Below are positions 1-4,910 of a stretch of 4,910 nucleotides of DNA, piece after piece. Origin of the DNA: a virus. Lineage: Duplodnaviria; Heunggongvirae; Uroviricota; Caudoviricetes. Both the position numbers and the translations under genes were made by a program. Every line of letters begins with the position of its first letter. Within the stretch, counting starts at the first letter, position 1. Location: IMG/VR virus record IMGVR_UViG_2671180439_000002, positions 1 to 4,910 of that record; one strand, written 5' to 3'. Below the pieces are notes generated by a model. That model saw only the letters and a program-made list of their open reading frames with translations, was not told the DNA's origin and searched no databases.

Positions 1-267
1 TGTTCAGCAGATTATCAGGCGCAACTGAAGCGGCATAATCTGCGTGGAAGTATGAGCGCAAAAGGTTGCTGCTACGATAATGCCTGCGTGGAAAGCTTCT
101 TTCATTCGCTGAAAGTGGAATGTATCCATGGAGAACACTTTATCAGCCGGGAAATAATGCGGGCAACGGTGTTTAATTATATCGAATGTGATTACAATCG
201 GTGGCGGCGGCACAGTTGGTGTGGCGGCCTCAGTCCGGAACAATTTGAAAACAAGAACCTCGCTTAG
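1..267 (+). CDS. insF: IS3 transposase OrfB (InsF-type, DDE integrase domain), C-terminal fragment; 5' end outside the window
   Basis: The reading frame is open from nt 1 with no stop until TAG at 265-267; the track ORF 52..267 is the same frame from an internal Met. The C-terminal motif ...[24 protein letters not shown] is characteristic of IS3 OrfB. Confidence 0.85.
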
Positions 268-297
268 GCCTGTGTCCATATTACGTGGGTAGGATCA
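259..297 (+). repeat. IS3 right terminal inverted repeat (IRR), approximate extent
   Basis: The last ~39 bp of the element end in ...CCATATTACGTGGGTAGGATCA at 297, the reverse complement of the TGATCCTACCCACG... type IS3 terminus. The left IR is not in the window, so the extent is from memory of IS3 only. Confidence 0.55.
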
Positions 298-507
298 GTT
301 CAATGTGATTTTTAAGACGTACTTTGAAGTTTTCCATGCATCCTCCATGCAAAGTGAAAACCTGCTGTTAAATCAAAGCAAGTCACAATCCCGGATAGGC
401 TTCATACAAGCCAATCCCCCACAGGGATTGAGTTATGCAAGCGAATCAATCTCAGAGCTTTTAACATGTATGGAGCTTAGAGATATTGTCCGTTAGACCA
501 TATAAGC

Positions 508-984
508 TTAAGCTCTGGCTTTCGTTTGTTTTTTTCCATCTTCCTCCTGCTCTGCCCATCTCCTTATCTTCATCTCTAATGAGTCTAAATATGCTTTAGC
601 ATCGCTATCTACCCAGCCAGGTATACGCTGTCCTTGCTCTAAGAGGACAAAATCAATGATAGCCTTTTTTTCTCTCGAAGCCTTATTATAGAGCTCGTCA
701 ATAGAACCATTTTTAACTATGGGATCTGTTGCGGGCTCACATGTATCAGTTAGCGGGTATCCCTTTAGTCCCCAGTGCTCGGGGCCCACAACATCAGAAA
801 AGTAGTTCCAAAGCTCTGGTAGCTTCTCTTTCGATATGGAGCCTTTATTGATCCAGTCATGGATTGATGGGGGTTTTATTTTGAAATGACGTGCGATTTC
901 CGCCTTACTCTTGGCAGAACCTATTGAAAGCTTCTTGTCTATGGCCTGCTCGATCGCTCGGCCCAATTCTTTACCACTAAGCAT
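508..984 (-). CDS. racR: RacR-like prophage repressor, 158 aa, N-terminal HTH and no S24 peptidase domain
   Basis: ATG at 982-984 (complement) with a GAGGA Shine-Dalgarno upstream; stop TAA at 508-510. The N-terminus carries a CI/XRE-like helix-turn-helix (SKAEIARHFKIKPPSIHDWINKG). It is transcribed divergently from a Cro-like and a CII-like gene, matching the racR-ydaS-ydaT arrangement of the E. coli Rac prophage, and has the same length as K-12 RacR (from memory). Confidence 0.7.
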   Translation of the reverse strand: MLSGKELGRAIEQAIDKKLSIGSAKSKAEIARHFKIKPPSIHDWINKGSISKEKLPELWNYFSDVVGPEHWGLKGYPLTDTCEPATDPIVKNGSIDELYNKASREKKAIIDFVLLEQGQRIPGWVDSDAKAYLDSLEMKIRRWAEQEEDGKKQTKARA

Positions 985-1085
985 TGCCTAATAATCCTCA
1001 TAACCTATAGCTTAGGCAATTCCTATTGATTGTTTATTAGGCTTAGCCTAATATCTGCTTGTGTGGAAATCATAGGAATCCGTTT
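985..1085. promoter_or_regulatory. Divergent promoter/operator region between the repressor gene and the cro-like gene
   Basis: A 101-bp AT-rich intergenic region between divergent start codons. Candidate rightward promoter: -35 TTGATT (1026-1031), 17-bp spacer, -10 TAATAT (1049-1054). The 8-mer GCCTAATA or its complement occurs three times (986-993, 1035-1042, 1046-1053). A second inverted pair is AATTCCTAT (1018-1026) and ATAGGAATC (1072-1080). Confidence 0.5.
1035..1053. promoter_or_regulatory. Candidate operator: perfect 8-3-8 inverted repeat TATTAGGC-tta-GCCTAATA
   Basis: The two arms are exact reverse complements in the sequence. The repeat lies in the spacer and -10 of the putative rightward promoter, where a repressor operator would be expected. 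Confidence 0.5.
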
Positions 1086-1349
1086 ATGAGAAGTAGCCTT
1101 GAAGCAATCAGTGAAGCCTGCCGCATTGTTGGGGGACAAGCCGCTTTGTCAAGGAATCTAGGCATCTCATCACCAACAGTGAATCAATGGACAACGGGCA
1201 TTAGGCAAATACCTGCGGAACGATGTCCTGCGATTGAGAAAGCTACTGGTGGTGCTGTCACCTGCGAAGAGCTTCGTCCTGACATTGACTGGGCCTATTT
1301 AAGAGGTGCAGCAATGCGAAAGCTTAATGTCACTGCATCAAATTTGTAA
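1086..1349 (+). CDS. ydaS: Cro-like HTH regulator of the YdaS family, 87 aa from ATG 1086
   Basis: ATG at 1086 is preceded by AGGA (1074-1077); the track ORF begins at an upstream TTG (1059) with no Shine-Dalgarno, so 1086 is preferred. The motif GGQAALSRNLGISSPTVNQWTTGIRQIPAERCPAIEKATGG is typical of YdaS/Cro-like prophage proteins. Stop TAA at 1347-1349. Confidence 0.7.
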   Translation: MRSSLEAISEACRIVGGQAALSRNLGISSPTVNQWTTGIRQIPAERCPAIEKATGGAVTCEELRPDIDWAYLRGAAMRKLNVTASNL

Positions 1350-1377
1350 CTACCACCCGAGTTTGAAAGGAGTAGGT

Positions 1378-1830
1378 ATGAACCTCAAAGAAGTCGTGAA
1401 ATCTATGTGCAAAGCATATCCAGGTGGGCGCGAAGCAATGGCTGGCGCACTGGGAATGACGGTGACGCAGTTTAACAACAACCTTTACGAGAAAAACGGC
1501 TGTCGTTTCTTCGAAGTCAGCGAACTGGAAGCGATGGAGGACATCTCGAATACATCTCACCTGGCTGAATATTTTGCCCGCCGTCGTGGTGCTCTGCTGG
1601 TGGATGTTCCGCACCTGGAAGAACTGGACCGCGTGGACTTGTTTAGCCGGGCAATGCGTACCTCTGCCGCCAGGGGGCAGGTTGATCAGATTATCGAACA
1701 GGCGCTTGAAGATGGCGTTATTGAAAGGCACGAGGCCGAAGAAATCATGGTGCATCACCGCCGTCACCTGGCAGCTCGTGAAGAAGAGATTGCCGCAATC
1801 ATCACGCTTTTTTCACGCAAAAAGAAGTGA
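1378..1830 (+). CDS. CII-like / YdaT-like prophage regulatory protein, 150 aa
   Basis: ATG at 1378 follows a strong Shine-Dalgarno AAGGAG (1367-1372) with 5-nt spacing; the track ORF from 1306 overlaps the upstream gene and lacks an SD. It sits immediately after the cro-like gene as cII does in lambdoid switches. The N-terminal region (GGREAMAGALGMTVTQFNNNLYEKNG) is HTH-like; the C-terminus is helical and charged. Stop TGA at 1828-1830. Confidence 0.65.
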   Translation: MNLKEVVKSMCKAYPGGREAMAGALGMTVTQFNNNLYEKNGCRFFEVSELEAMEDISNTSHLAEYFARRRGALLVDVPHLEELDRVDLFSRAMRTSAARGQVDQIIEQALEDGVIERHEAEEIMVHHRRHLAAREEEIAAIITLFSRKKK

Positions 1831-1858
1831 CGCCAGCGAGTTGCAGCTCCTGGCGTCG
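1828..1858 (+). other. Stem-loop between the CII-like gene and dam; no U-tract
   Basis: GACGCCAG (1829-1836) pairs with CTGGCGTC (1850-1857), with an inner GAG/CTC pair (1838-1840 with 1847-1849). It overlaps the stop of the upstream gene and the GTG at 1858. No T-run follows, so it is not a canonical intrinsic terminator. Confidence 0.3.
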
Positions 1859-2697
1859 TGGCGTGTCGTTATCAGTGGAGATTACTAACGCATGAACAGT
1901 TTATCAACACAATACCGCAGGTCGCAACTTGTAGCGCGGCCAGTTCCTGGTGGAGCAGGGCCGGTGCAGTTCGTGTAGAGCCATTCGTTGGTGGTGGGTC
2001 GGTATTCCTGAACAGCGAAAAGCACGCAGATTACCTGCTGGCGGACGTTAACCCGGACCTGATTAATCTGTATCAGATGTTAGCGGTCGTGCCGGATGAA
2101 GTGGAATTGAAGGCCCGCTGGATGTTCGAGCACATGCGGTCACCAGAGCGCTATGAGCTGATCCGTTCCGAGTTCAACTCTCAGACGCTGGATGCTACTG
2201 AACGCGCAGCTGCATTCCTGTATCTCAACCGGCATTGCTTCAATGGTCTGATGCGCTACAACCAGGCGAACAAGTTCAATGTGGGCTGGGGAGGCTACAA
2301 GGCTCCGTATTACCCGATGGATGAGATGAAAGCCTTCGCGGCTATGGCGCATAACTGCGTATTCATGACGGCTGATTACCGCCGGACAATCAGCCTGGCC
2401 GGGAAAGGGGATGTGGTTTACTGCGATCCGCCTTACGAACCGATGCCGGGAACAACCGGATTCACCGCCTACGCCGCTGGTGGTTTTAACTGGGAGAACC
2501 AGGTAGACCTGGCGAAGCAATGCGTATCAGCCTTTCACCGTGGGGCTCGGGTAGTGATTTCTAACTCATCTGCACCGAAGGTTCTCGACCTGTACCGGGA
2601 GCATGGTTTTAACCTGCAATTCATCAACGCGCGCCGTTCGATCTCCTGCAAAAGCAGTACGCGGGAAGTCGCAAAAGACGTTGTAGCGATCCTTTAA
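1858..2697 (+). CDS. dam: Dam-family N6-adenine DNA methyltransferase (prophage-borne); 5' end uncertain, possibly frameshifted
   Basis: From ~nt 1973 the translation aligns well with E. coli Dam: VEPFVGGGSVFLN (AdoMet motif I), AFLYLNR, and the catalytic DPPY motif in VVYCDPPYEP. The track start is a GTG (1858) without a Shine-Dalgarno, and the conserved N-terminal KWAGGK-type motif is absent in this frame. An SD-preceded ATG at 1892 is in the +2 frame and hits a stop at 1976-1978. Stop TAA at 2695-2697. Confidence 0.75.
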   Translation: MACRYQWRLLTHEQFINTIPQVATCSAASSWWSRAGAVRVEPFVGGGSVFLNSEKHADYLLADVNPDLINLYQMLAVVPDEVELKARWMFEHMRSPERYELIRSEFNSQTLDATERAAAFLYLNRHCFNGLMRYNQANKFNVGWGGYKAPYYPMDEMKAFAAMAHNCVFMTADYRRTISLAGKGDVVYCDPPYEPMPGTTGFTAYAAGGFNWENQVDLAKQCVSAFHRGARVVISNSSAPKVLDLYREHGFNLQFINARRSISCKSSTREVAKDVVAIL

Positions 2698-2706
2698 GGG
2701 GGCTAA

Positions 2707-3549
2707 ATGAAACTGACTTTACCATTTCCACCGAGCGTAAATAGTTACTGGCGCGCCCCGAGCAAGGGACCGCTGAAAGGCAGGCATCTGGTAAGCGAGA
2801 CAGGGCGCAAGTTCCAGCAGGCAGCGAGAGCGGCGATTATTGAGCAACTGCGGGCCGTTCCCCGGCCATCCTCAGATCTGGCCGAGGTTCACATAAACGT
2901 TGTTGAGGGCGCGGGGCTTGAGCTTGATCCTGATGATGATTCACAGGTTCTTAAAGCGATTGGTGGCGGTCGCCTGCTTAATATTGTCACCTTTACTAAG
3001 TCAGGGACTTACACTCCAACTAAAGGGACGAAAAGAGTGCGGGTGAAAGTTTGGGGAGCGGGGGGAGGTGGCCAGAATGCTCCAGTTAGTGTGGGCGCAT
3101 CTGGAGGTTGTGCTGGTGGATTTTCGGAAGGGTTATTTAATATTTCTGATAACGAAACTATATCTGTGACGATAGGTACTGGTGGCAGTGCTGTTGCTGC
3201 TGGTGTCTCGTCTAAAGGCGGGAATGGTGGTGATACAAGGTTCGGGAGTTTAATCTCAGCTACTGGAGGGAGTGGTGGCGGGGCTACAGTTCCTGCTGGA
3301 GGTATCGGAAGTGGCGGGAACATTTTAAATATTACTGGCGGAATATCTCAAGGTGGTCTGTATTATGGTTCTGATGCTTTTATTGGCGGGGCTGGAGGAT
3401 CTGCATTTTCATCAACGGGTGGCAATGGCCACTTCGGTAGTTCTGGCGATGATGGCGGTTTCCCCGGCTCAGGTGGTGCCGGGGGGAATGGTAACTATTC
3501 ATCAGGAAAAGGAGCGAATGGTTTAGTTTACCTTGAAGAGTTTTCCTGA
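2707..3549 (+). CDS. Chimeric ORF: RusA-like N-terminus (about aa 1-85) fused in frame to a glycine-rich tail-fibre-type domain (about aa 95-280)
   Basis: ATG at 2707 follows AAGGGGG. The N-terminus (LTLPFPPSVNSYWR ... LELDPDDDSQVLKA) resembles RusA (LPWPPSNNRYYR ... DLDNLQKA), but the downstream catalytic Asp region is missing. From ~nt 2975 the ORF is glycine-rich (TYTPTKGTKRVRVKVWGAGGGG ... GANGLVYLEEF), like phage tail-fibre glycine-rich domains. Codon usage becomes A/T-rich at third positions after the junction. Stop TGA at 3547-3549. Confidence 0.6.
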   Translation: MKLTLPFPPSVNSYWRAPSKGPLKGRHLVSETGRKFQQAARAAIIEQLRAVPRPSSDLAEVHINVVEGAGLELDPDDDSQVLKAIGGGRLLNIVTFTKSGTYTPTKGTKRVRVKVWGAGGGGQNAPVSVGASGGCAGGFSEGLFNISDNETISVTIGTGGSAVAAGVSSKGGNGGDTRFGSLISATGGSGGGATVPAGGIGSGGNILNITGGISQGGLYYGSDAFIGGAGGSAFSSTGGNGHFGSSGDDGGFPGSGGAGGNGNYSSGKGANGLVYLEEFS

Positions 3550-4619
3550 TTATTTTTGCTTTGAGCGTCCGCCCTTATTTTTGCTCTAATTTTAATTAGT
3601 GGCTTGTCTATTAATATTACACAAACGATCCCAAGTGCAATTGATATTGGGTAGCCTAATAAAAAGATGGATAAGCCACGATTTTCACCACCAATAGCAA
3701 GCCATGCTAGAAATCCACCAAAATATTGACAAAGAAAAATTGGATAGGCCAGGTCACCAAACCACTTGAGTATTTTCTCAAGATGTATGTTTGTCTTTAT
3801 TTTTAATAATACCAGGGTTGTAAACAATGCTATTACATTATTGGTGTAGTAAAGTATTATGTTGTACTGACCTAATGGATTAATTGTATATAAATGCCAA
3901 TTGGTAATAAAAATCCCGATGCAAATAAATGTTATTAAAAAAGCTTTGTGTGGAGAAAGATACATAGCTTTGAACTTTCTATGGGCAAAATAACCCAGAG
4001 AACCCATGCTAAAAGGAAGTGTTGCAGCAAGGAATGGGAAATACGCCATATCAAAAGAATGGTGTACTACATATACGTAAGCATGATAAAGCAGTGAAAG
4101 CAGAATCGACGTAATGGCTGTAAATTTATTTCGGGCTATGAAAAGCCACAATAAAAAATAACATGTTATCTCAACACCCACTGACCATGATGATGTGACT
4201 ATTCTGAATCTATTACCATCAATAGCAAAGTGATAAATGGATGAAAAGGCACCGAATGGATTTGCTACAGCATTATCAGAAAGGAAAGCCCAGGGGAAGA
4301 TTAAGAGGTTTCCTAATAAATCTCCAGGTAAGAAATTGCCTGTCCAGTTTGAGTGGAATTCCTTTGCGGATGGAATTAATTTTATAATAAGAAAGCCCAT
4401 GACGAGAAAAAATATATATGCCGGGAATAACCTCAGTATTCTATTTTTCCAAAACATAGAGAAGTTGAACTTGTATGTTTCATGCAAAATGTATGTTATT
4501 AAAAAACCACTAATAACATAGAAGCAATTCACTGCAAAGTTGCCAAGTGCAGGTATGCGAGCCGTTAAGTGAAAAGCAATGACGCACGATGCCAAAAAAA
4601 ACCTTATTAGGCCAAGCAT
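3528..4619 (-). CDS. Acyltransferase family 3 integral membrane protein, 363 aa; putative O-antigen/polysaccharide O-acetyltransferase (Oac/OafA-like moron)
   Basis: Highly hydrophobic with multiple predicted TM helices. The N-terminal VIAFH motif and the FWKNRILRLFPAYIFF motif fit the family consensus (conserved His in TM1; RxxRIxPxY loop). The gene is very AT-rich compared with its flanks. ATG at 4617-4619 (complement), stop TAA at 3528-3530 (complement). Confidence 0.75.
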   Translation of the reverse strand: MLGLIRFFLASCVIAFHLTARIPALGNFAVNCFYVISGFLITYILHETYKFNFSMFWKNRILRLFPAYIFFLVMGFLIIKLIPSAKEFHSNWTGNFLPGDLLGNLLIFPWAFLSDNAVANPFGAFSSIYHFAIDGNRFRIVTSSWSVGVEITCYFLLWLFIARNKFTAITSILLSLLYHAYVYVVHHSFDMAYFPFLAATLPFSMGSLGYFAHRKFKAMYLSPHKAFLITFICIGIFITNWHLYTINPLGQYNIILYYTNNVIALFTTLVLLKIKTNIHLEKILKWFGDLAYPIFLCQYFGGFLAWLAIGGENRGLSIFLLGYPISIALGIVCVILIDKPLIKIRAKIRADAQSKNNQENSSR

Positions 4620-4906
4620 TATTTTATCTCCGCGCCAATATCGCGCATTTTATTTATTACATTGTTAAGTTGCTCATCAGACAGAACAAGCTGAGCTGCA
4701 ATATAAAACAGTATGTGTCTTGACATTACCCTGGGGCTCTCTCCGCCAGTGTATTTCCGCCATTGGCTATCGCTGGCTACACCTGCGAGCCCTGCCATTT
4801 GGTTTCCGGAGTAATTTAGTGCGGATTTCAGTCTGGCTAAATCTTCCTGCGTTGGAGGGGTGTATTTATTTATTAAAATCATTCTCTTATTTAACCGTTT
4901 AAACAC
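4619..4906 (-). CDS. Small XRE-type HTH protein (HigA/YiaG-like); start uncertain and frame open to the window edge
   Basis: The HTH-like segment LNYSGNQMAGLAGVASDSQWRKYTGGESPRVMSRHILFYIAAQLVL is typical of XRE regulators. Its stop codon TAA (4619-4621, complement) overlaps the acyltransferase ATG as TAATG. The track start at 4904-4906 is a GTG and the next codon upstream is not a stop, so the true start may be the ATG at 4880-4882 or lie beyond the window. Confidence 0.5.
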   Translation of the reverse strand: MFKRLNKRMILINKYTPPTQEDLARLKSALNYSGNQMAGLAGVASDSQWRKYTGGESPRVMSRHILFYIAAQLVLSDEQLNNVINKMRDIGAEIK

Positions 4907-4910
4907 GTAA

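Follow-up and report, generated by a model that had tools for sequence, protein, structure and literature searches.

Phages carry O-acyltransferases that alter serotype, vaccine epitopes and susceptibility to phages, and few of these enzymes have a known substrate. Analogues that acylate surface glycans include Oac of phage Sf6, the oafB product of BTP1 and Oac of phiV10 (PMC9558356). AT-rich moron genes for acyltransferase-3 (AT3) proteins are already known beside tail fibres, as in Sf6 (Oac), Escherichia coli CFT073 (NeaT) and Serratia phage vB_SspM_BZS1 (p24; BZS1 below). NeaT has a demonstrated virulence phenotype and promotes bloodstream fitness (PMC3573123). In BZS1, antisense genes for an AT3 protein, a helix-turn-helix (HTH) protein and a small membrane protein lie between two fibre genes, so that the HTH-coupled layout is itself published; its authors had no clue to the role of the HTH and membrane proteins, and found p27-p28 to be virion proteins by mass spectrometry (PMC7556043). 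Here we examine a window of 4,910 nucleotides, which is the whole stretch analysed (positions 1 to 4,910 of IMG/VR virus record IMGVR_UViG_2671180439_000002). At its right-hand end, on the minus strand, it carries an AT3 gene preceded by a small gene for a putative XRE-like HTH regulator.

Positions 298-4910 of the window are 99.9-100% identical to ten complete E. coli genomes, in which the region is a degraded prophage with a tRNA-Ser/mtfA site on one side and yodB on the other. The locus is what remains of a temperate myovirus that has Mu-type baseplate genes and is related to BZS1, and the AT3 gene lies at the distal end of the tail-fibre module. Its AT3 locus is a moron by its deviant G+C (GC) content, its antisense orientation to the tail genes, the swapping of its cargo among related phages and the promoter-like site upstream. 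On balance, we consider it probable that the gene pair is a lysogenic-conversion ('moron') operon that has survived the decay of its prophage, with autoregulation by the HTH protein and acylation of a surface glycan by the AT3 protein. Three computational results appear to be new, namely that the HTH gene is what stays constant in a slot for cargo, that a promoter and a palindrome in front of it are conserved, and that different alleles have common cassette boundaries. The AT3 subfamily occurs in E. coli HS, a commensal reference strain, and in 31 other complete genomes.

The product of the AT3 gene matches PF01757 with 57.1 bits (cut-off 31; E 2e-15), residues 4-336 covering profile positions 6-323 of 326, and it also matches PHROG 3333, 'O-acetyltransferase' (E 5.8e-22). 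An AlphaFold2 model made from a 16-sequence alignment (A1) has a pLDDT of 90, a pTM of 0.90 and ten long membrane helices (residues 2-19, 25-49, 53-81, 144-161, 165-186, 196-213, 223-246, 253-272, 278-308 and 316-362); a crude hydropathy scan gives eight clear segments. Both the acyltransferase-3 homology and the membrane character that a preliminary description of this DNA had proposed from its letters are thereby borne out.

The motifs of the family are present as R6-X10-H17 in helix 1, F33-Y-V-I-S37-G38 (FFXISG-type) and R60-I-L-R63 (RXXR). H17, F33, S37, G38, R60 and R63 are invariant in alignment A1, and R6 is not. Residues in an R/K-X10-H motif of the first transmembrane helix, an FFXISG-type motif of the second and an RXXR motif after the second are essential in OafA, Oac and OafB (PMC7448272). 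The protein has a single domain and lacks an SGNH domain, and is therefore of the AT3-only type, like Oac. Relative to the most diverged E. coli allele (locus L082), its gene shows 23 synonymous and 7 non-synonymous differences, and the resulting ratio of non-synonymous to synonymous polymorphism (pN/pS) of 0.09 indicates that the gene has been maintained by purifying selection. We conclude that this is an acyltransferase-3 protein with the functional motifs of its family, acyl transfer itself being predicted.

Relatives at 64% identity or less are found in Lonsdalea, Pantoea, Klebsiella, Sodalis, Serratia and Legionella, with no characterised member among them, and no NCBIfam family was found for the protein. 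A tblastn search of 50,697 phage records gave no close match, the best being a Vibrio phage at 28%. A Foldseek comparison of the model with the PDB returned only meaningless transporter matches (TM-score of at most 0.24), which is uninformative rather than a negative result. The protein is a member of an uncharacterised AT3 subfamily.

At the junction of the two genes the minus strand reads ...GGCGCGGAGATAAAATAATGCTT, and the stop codon of the small gene shares a base with the start codon of the AT3 gene (Table 1). The preliminary description had taken this TAATG overlap to imply co-transcription and translational coupling. The overlap is as described, and nothing in the sequence speaks against co-transcription: a Shine-Dalgarno-like GGAG for the AT3 gene lies inside the small gene, and the two genes are separated by no promoter-like or terminator-like site. 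An intrinsic terminator was also sought after the AT3 gene and none was found, two terminator-like matches being at chance level. The drop in GC content that had been reported over 3550-4620 is evident in 300-nt windows, with values of 0.33-0.37 over 3600-4650 compared to 0.52-0.57 over 1350-3150. Gene by gene, GC content is 0.352 for AT3, 0.42-0.43 for the small gene, 0.498 for the fibre remnant, 0.583 for the N-terminal part of RusA and 0.542 for dam, so the HTH gene is indeed the more GC-rich member of the pair, as claimed. This gradient is general, since the cargo is the most AT-rich element in 32 of 32 related loci (mean GC 0.356, compared to 0.462 in the HTH gene and 0.523 in the backbone).

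That the pair might be a junction of different origins, as the preliminary description also put forward, is confirmed by comparison with other alleles. The DNA of locus L094 is 100% identical to the window across the entire small gene and 9 nt into the AT3 gene, and identity falls just after ATGCTTGG to about 55%. It remains near 55% across the AT3 gene and the Gly-rich part of the fibre gene, and returns to about 100% from window position ~3030 leftwards. The two loci show the same pattern gene by gene, as the small gene is 100% identical and AT3 only 48%. A third allele, in locus L117, has the same boundaries and encodes a DUF1796/DUF4214 protein instead of an acyltransferase. The identity profiles against L094 and L117 place the boundaries at ~3030-3060 and ~4610-4650. 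Thus, at least three alleles occupy the same backbone (AT3-v1, AT3-v2 at 48% identity, and the DUF1796/DUF4214 protein), and their shared boundaries argue that the exchangeable unit consists of the fibre tip plus the cargo gene. The small gene is part of the conserved backbone and not of the cargo. In tblastn searches of the loci examined, it adjoins this particular AT3 gene only in near-identical E. coli copies and in L094. The common boundaries suggest that host range and self-exclusion could be exchanged jointly.

For the small gene, the start codon is almost certainly ATG 4882 rather than GTG 4906, which would open a longer open reading frame (ORF) of 95 amino acids (4619-4906, minus strand), because 17 of 17 aligned homologues begin at the former and because the latter lies only 8 nt past the -10 element of the sole promoter-like site. 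Its product matches PHROG 20491 (E 3e-30), which is annotated as 'unknown function'. The family is compact, with 174 cluster representatives among 1.84 billion proteins, and its members share an invariant WRKYTGG..PR stretch. A structural model has five helices at a mean pLDDT of 70, and on this model the best Foldseek matches are Aca10 (probability 0.99, target TM-score 0.76), C.Kpn2I, HigA and Aca1/Aca2, all with E of at least 0.19. The best PDB match of the family profile is the DNA-binding HTH domain of AcrIF24 (E 0.06). In the 1.84-billion-protein library the same profile matches tandem HTH_3/HTH_31-repeat proteins with E of 1e-10 to 4e-5, scores that are summed over the repeats; Pfam confirmed such repeats in P0258, P0280, P0318 and P0320. 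These matches and the modelled fold suggest that the protein is likely an XRE-like HTH protein, although it is not a family member by curated criteria. The earlier assignment to XRE-type HTH proteins therefore stands at the level of fold and profile, and fails at the curated HTH thresholds, none of which is reached.

Most loci outside E. coli carry a sigma-70 promoter (TTGACA-17-TATTAT) upstream of the operon, and the spacer of this promoter contains the palindrome TAGC(A/C)CC-N3-GGGGCTA. The exact palindrome motif is present once per locus in 45 loci, BZS1 included, and always upstream of this operon; in the other 144 loci it is found 0 times. It persists in loci whose HTH protein shows no more than 55-60% identity. 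A palindrome in a promoter spacer that is co-conserved with an HTH gene of the same operon would be a signature of autorepression. In E. coli, the sole promoter-like site upstream of the pair is TTGACG-17-TAACAT, situated just past the window end (at what would be 4915-4943; L001 19646-19618). A search of the E. coli HS prophage for the canonical palindrome, with up to two mismatches allowed, gave 0 matches, so the candidate operator in E. coli is degenerate.

Other features of this control region vary among the relatives. In most loci outside E. coli (L119-L176, and L187, which is BZS1, at 6790-7000) an ORF of about 57 amino acids with a C-terminal membrane helix lies between the promoter and the HTH gene. 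It is followed by a GC-rich hairpin and T-run (AAGCCCCGnAAGGGGCTTTTT) that ends 10-15 nt before the HTH start codon. The stem sequence is altered in distant loci, where the hairpin itself is kept, and this terminator-like structure in front of the HTH gene may attenuate the operon. The E. coli version has neither the small membrane-protein gene nor the hairpin. We also considered phase variation of the Dam/OxyR type, as at gtr and oafB loci, and rejected it because no GATC occurs in the intergenic region that precedes the small gene.

The wider distribution of the small gene was assessed at 80 loci, taken from 269 relatives of the small protein in the viral-contig collection. The gene directly after the HTH homologue often overlaps it or lies within about 50 nt. 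This gene encodes an AT3 acyltransferase at 28 of the 80 loci, from several mutually remote subfamilies, a hexapeptide-repeat acetyltransferase at 9 and a GT25 lipopolysaccharide glycosyltransferase at 1; the remainder have other or unknown proteins there, or nothing convincing. On the opposite strand, the next gene is a fibre or fibre-assembly gene in nearly all loci. The HTH-acyltransferase pair to which the preliminary description had drawn attention is therefore recurrent in viral loci, and it had already been published, unexplained, for BZS1 (PMC7556043). Truncated or fragmentary AT3 genes also stand behind some HTH homologues (L135/L136 1988-2182; L121 4811-5578), indicating that the cargo of the slot also decays.

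From these distributions we tentatively draw a broader picture, to which we give rather less than even weight. The HTH protein may be an autorepressor resembling Aca and C proteins that marks a hypervariable 'receptor-modification' slot common to hundreds of temperate myoviruses, from Enterobacterales to Burkholderia. The slot cargo (acyltransferases of three unrelated folds, glycosyltransferases and unknown proteins) would be expressed in the lysogen, and, as the slot is next to the fibre tip, recombination would swap a receptor-binding domain as one unit with the enzyme that masks the receptor. If so, the HTH gene and its palindrome would offer a guilt-by-association handle for new surface-modifying or exclusion genes. 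In any case, a small gene to which the literature assigns no function is the invariable part of a slot whose surface-modifying cargo is interchangeable. Should the product of this small gene be a regulator, the arrangement would provide a simple model for keeping converting genes on in lysogens, as well as a means of searching for them.

Applied to the E. coli locus, the explanation that we favour would proceed as follows. In the lysogen, the operon would be transcribed from the promoter-like site just past the window end, with its degenerate palindrome, and the small HTH protein would bind this palindrome and autoregulate the operon, as Aca and C proteins do. The AT3 gene would be translated from its own GGAG element, through coupling or re-initiation at TAATG. 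Its product would then transfer an acyl group, probably acetyl, that is supplied by cytoplasmic acyl-CoA to a glycan of the cell surface. The acceptor would most likely be the O-antigen or a different glycan that serves as a phage receptor, and its acylation would alter antigenicity and phage adsorption. By analogy with the characterised enzymes, the AT3 protein probably acylates a surface glycan in the lysogen, and the cassette that it shares with the fibre tip suggests that the target may be the receptor of the phage itself.

Several observations weigh against this explanation. The small protein falls below every curated HTH threshold (HTH_31 14.3 bits against a cut-off of 27, E 0.05; NCBIfam RstR E 0.06), and the E-values of its structural matches are weak. 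The E. coli promoter has 9 of 12 consensus positions, and the E. coli copy of the palindrome is off consensus at 3 of 14 specified positions. Pairwise comparisons revealed no significant full-length similarity of the AT3 protein to characterised Oac, NeaT or BZS1 p24. In the window the fibre gene is truncated and the prophage is unable to make virions, so any benefit to the phage is historical. The O9 polymannan is not known to be O-acetylated, and at least two carriers are named O9. In addition, roughly half of the HTH homologues are followed by no recognisable enzyme, and such enzyme-free loci imply a role of the HTH gene that is independent of the cargo.

These enzyme-free loci are also what would be expected if the HTH protein were no dedicated regulator of cargo, and instead belonged with the small membrane protein to an older two-gene module having its own function, for example in immunity or exclusion, with cargo having landed behind its lysogen-active promoter. 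The ORF of the 57-amino-acid type and the hairpin with its T-run just upstream of the HTH gene in most loci outside E. coli fit such a module, as does Bordetella phage IFTN8, which has the pair away from any acyltransferase. Moreover, AT3 relatives of 53% identity occupy the same genomic position in related myoviruses, standing alone after the fibre and assembly genes and lacking the small HTH gene, which shows that the enzyme needs no HTH protein. However, a module of this kind is compatible with autoregulation, as whatever controls the promoter also controls the cargo; the E. coli version lacks its small membrane-protein gene, and PADLOC gave no defence model for AT3, the small protein or their BZS1 homologues. 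We regard it as somewhat unlikely. A serious alternative, though one we judge unlikely, is that the AT3 protein is a host-fitness or virulence factor resembling NeaT and modifies an envelope glycan other than the receptor, and that its link to the fibre gene reflects only a permissive insertion site. The neaT gene too is AT-rich and belongs to PF01757; in its P2-like prophage it follows the tail-fibre assembly gene in antisense, and it aids bloodstream fitness (PMC3573123). The intact state of the AT3 gene and the purifying selection on it, although the structural genes of the prophage are lost, favour the same view. Similarity of cargo and similarity of fibre tip are also only weakly linked over 78 locus pairs (rho 0.25), a correlation confounded by overall relatedness that we do not use as evidence for joint exchange. 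Yet fibre tip and cargo have been replaced together, with common boundaries, in the one backbone where this can be judged, the cargo classes are typical of surface-glycan modification in converting phages, and there is no sequence similarity to NeaT.

The favoured operon model must also be set against simple decay. The prophage is heavily deleted, with RusA fused to a fibre fragment, insertion sequence (IS) elements on its flanks and the head, tail and lysis genes gone, and among 5426 complete E. coli genomes no more than 32 have the pair (at 98.5-100% DNA identity to a query of both genes). Nevertheless, both ORFs are intact in all 32 carriers, every residue of the catalytic motifs is present and the pN/pS of the AT3 gene is 0.09. 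We consider a non-functional leftover very improbable. A last possibility concerns the divergent neighbour beyond the window end (L001 19687-21681), which RefSeq names 'sialate O-acetylesterase'. A metabolic esterase of the NanS-p type was rejected as an interpretation of this name, since the protein matches a tail-fibre family (PHROG 4201, E 2e-66) and is itself a tail fibre, in which residues 271-519 form a SASA esterase domain. Esterase-domain fibres are common among temperate phages (PMC13123978), and the BZS1 authors speculated that p24 and p27 form an acetylation/deacetylation pair acting on one receptor (PMC7556043), a model that could be extended to the E. coli genes. However, only the N-terminal ~130 residues of this second fibre are conserved. 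Its C-terminal part varies, being annotated as SASA, SGNH/GDSL, TolB-like, CotH or hypothetical in the 32 E. coli genomes that have the same AT3, which makes it another hypervariable receptor-binding protein. Because the second fibre differs beside a constant AT3 gene, which travels instead with the Gly-rich fibre tip on its other side, we rejected a functional pairing with the esterase fibre and regard such a pair as improbable.

Table 1. Features of the window (4,910 nt) that bear on the AT3 locus
Feature	Positions	Strand	Details
IS3-family transposase, 3' fragment	1-297		rve_2/rve_3 domains
Tail-fibre remnant	2894..3549	+	Residues 44-261 of the 261-aa E. coli HS fibre; Gly_rich_2 domain (PF21722 E 2.5e-9; PHROG tail-fibre families; tblastn)
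Variable cassette (Gly-rich C-terminal fibre tip plus cargo gene)	3030..4615		Flanks 95-100% conserved; pairwise identity profiles against L094 and L117
Convergent 3'-end overlap of AT3 and fibre genes	3528..3549		22 bp, from ORF coordinates
AT3-only acyltransferase gene, exchangeable cargo	3528..4619	-	363 aa; GC 35%
TAATG stop/start overlap	4617..4621	-	TAA 4621-4619, ATG 4619-4617, base 4619 common; also right-hand recombination boundary
Small conserved gene, putative XRE-like HTH regulator	4619..4882	-	87 aa from ATG 4882; PHROG 20491
GGAG Shine-Dalgarno-like element for AT3	4628..4631	-	8 nt 5' of ATG, within the end of the small gene

Read from its left end, the window contains the IS3-family transposase fragment, racR, a YdaS-type HTH gene, a YmfL/CII-type gene, a Dam methylase gene, a RusA-fibre chimera and, on the other strand, the AT3 and small genes. 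Similarity to the ten closest genomes begins at position 298, where some of them carry ISKpn26 or other IS elements. Positions 508-1830 form an immunity-type region with racR (minus strand), the divergent YdaS-type HTH gene (PF15943, E 4e-30) and the YmfL/CII-type gene (PF06892). The latter two ORFs overlap as listed, and RefSeq places their start codons further in.

A less decayed form of the prophage is present in E. coli HS, where terminase, portal and head genes, the Mu-type baseplate genes gp46/gp47/YmfQ and a 261-aa Gly-rich fibre gene are followed by the AT3 and small genes on the opposite strand and by the gene for the 664-aa 'sialate O-acetylesterase'. The DNA match to E. coli HS starts at 2894. 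In the chimeric ORF at 2707-3549 (plus strand), the first ~63 residues of RusA resolvase (2707-2893) are joined in frame to the 218 C-terminal residues of the fibre, and the junction near 2894 marks a deletion in which genes still present in the E. coli HS prophage, for late regulation, lysis, head and tail, were lost. RefSeq labels this ORF as partial RusA or as 'glycine-rich domain-containing protein'. GC skew is very strong (+0.25 to +0.41) across 2850-3450, and a 104-aa Pro-rich ORF occupies 3009-3323 on the strand opposite to the fibre; both stem from the GGN-rich coding of the glycine-rich fibre domain and are not separate features.

Towards the right-hand edge of the prophage remnant lies a 137-nt feature that carries the annotation 'tRNA-OTHER' (L001 24599-24735); it may represent a tRNA that was duplicated, or part of one, at the attachment site. 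The designation O9:H10 appears in the names of two carrier records. E. coli HS is O9:H4 and PCN061 is O9, and by analogy with the K-12 gene order the prophage site may be fairly near the O-antigen locus, perhaps within about 100 kb. Any association of carriers with serotype could therefore stem from function or from linkage.

Among described systems, the AT3 locus shares several features with oac of Sf6. Oac (OacA) of this Shigella phage, the archetype of serotype-converting O-antigen acetylases, is likewise an AT3-only, prophage-borne protein encoded by an AT-rich gene, and oac is convergent with and directly downstream of tailspike gene 14, as the AT3 gene is with the fibre gene here. The R-X10-H, FFXISG and RXXR motifs are common to both proteins. 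However, BLASTP aligns only 44 residues of the N-terminal motif region (36% identity, pairwise E 0.002), hhalign covers 65 columns with a probability of 66%, and no Oac-carrying phage was recovered among the phage records at E of 1e-3 or less. In addition, oac has its own annotated putative promoter and no HTH partner gene. The likeness to Oac that had first been pointed out thus holds for family motifs and for an AT3-only architecture beside a receptor-binding gene, and does not extend to full-length relatedness.

NeaT (moron position 2 of its P2-like prophage; PMC3573123) agrees with the window protein in its PF01757 domain, its low GC content of ~30% and its antisense orientation to tail genes, and its gene overlaps the fibre-assembly gene at the 3' end by 17 bp, compared to 22 bp with the fibre gene here. 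It differs in having no detectable pairwise similarity and no upstream HTH gene, and in belonging to another phage family. OafA and OafB of Salmonella have an AT3 domain with the same essential residues (PMC7448272) and modify an O-antigen that is relevant to phages. Unlike the window protein they are AT3-SGNH fusions, and the intergenic region here, being free of GATC, gives no sign of Dam/OxyR-type phase variation.

The small-protein family is also found in cultured phages, and the closest of these, which shares the layout, is BZS1 (MT843275; PMC7556043), in which Mu-like baseplate genes are accompanied by fibre p23, antisense AT3 p24, HTH p25 and the divergent esterase fibre p27. The p25 protein is 67% identical to the E. 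coli small protein, and the canonical promoter palindrome occurs once, upstream of the small membrane-protein gene p26. The similarity of p24 to the E. coli AT3 protein is at the level of family motifs only, and the E. coli locus differs further in lacking both a p26-type gene and a hairpin before the HTH gene, and in its degenerate palindrome. For the HTH gene, the nearest parallels are the Aca repressors and the C proteins of restriction-modification systems, which are small XRE-type HTH proteins that share one operon with a variable or dangerous partner and bind an inverted repeat in their own promoters. The resemblance is one of fold and genomic logic only (E-values 0.06-2), and the partners differ in kind, being anti-CRISPRs or nucleases in those systems and surface-modifying enzymes here.

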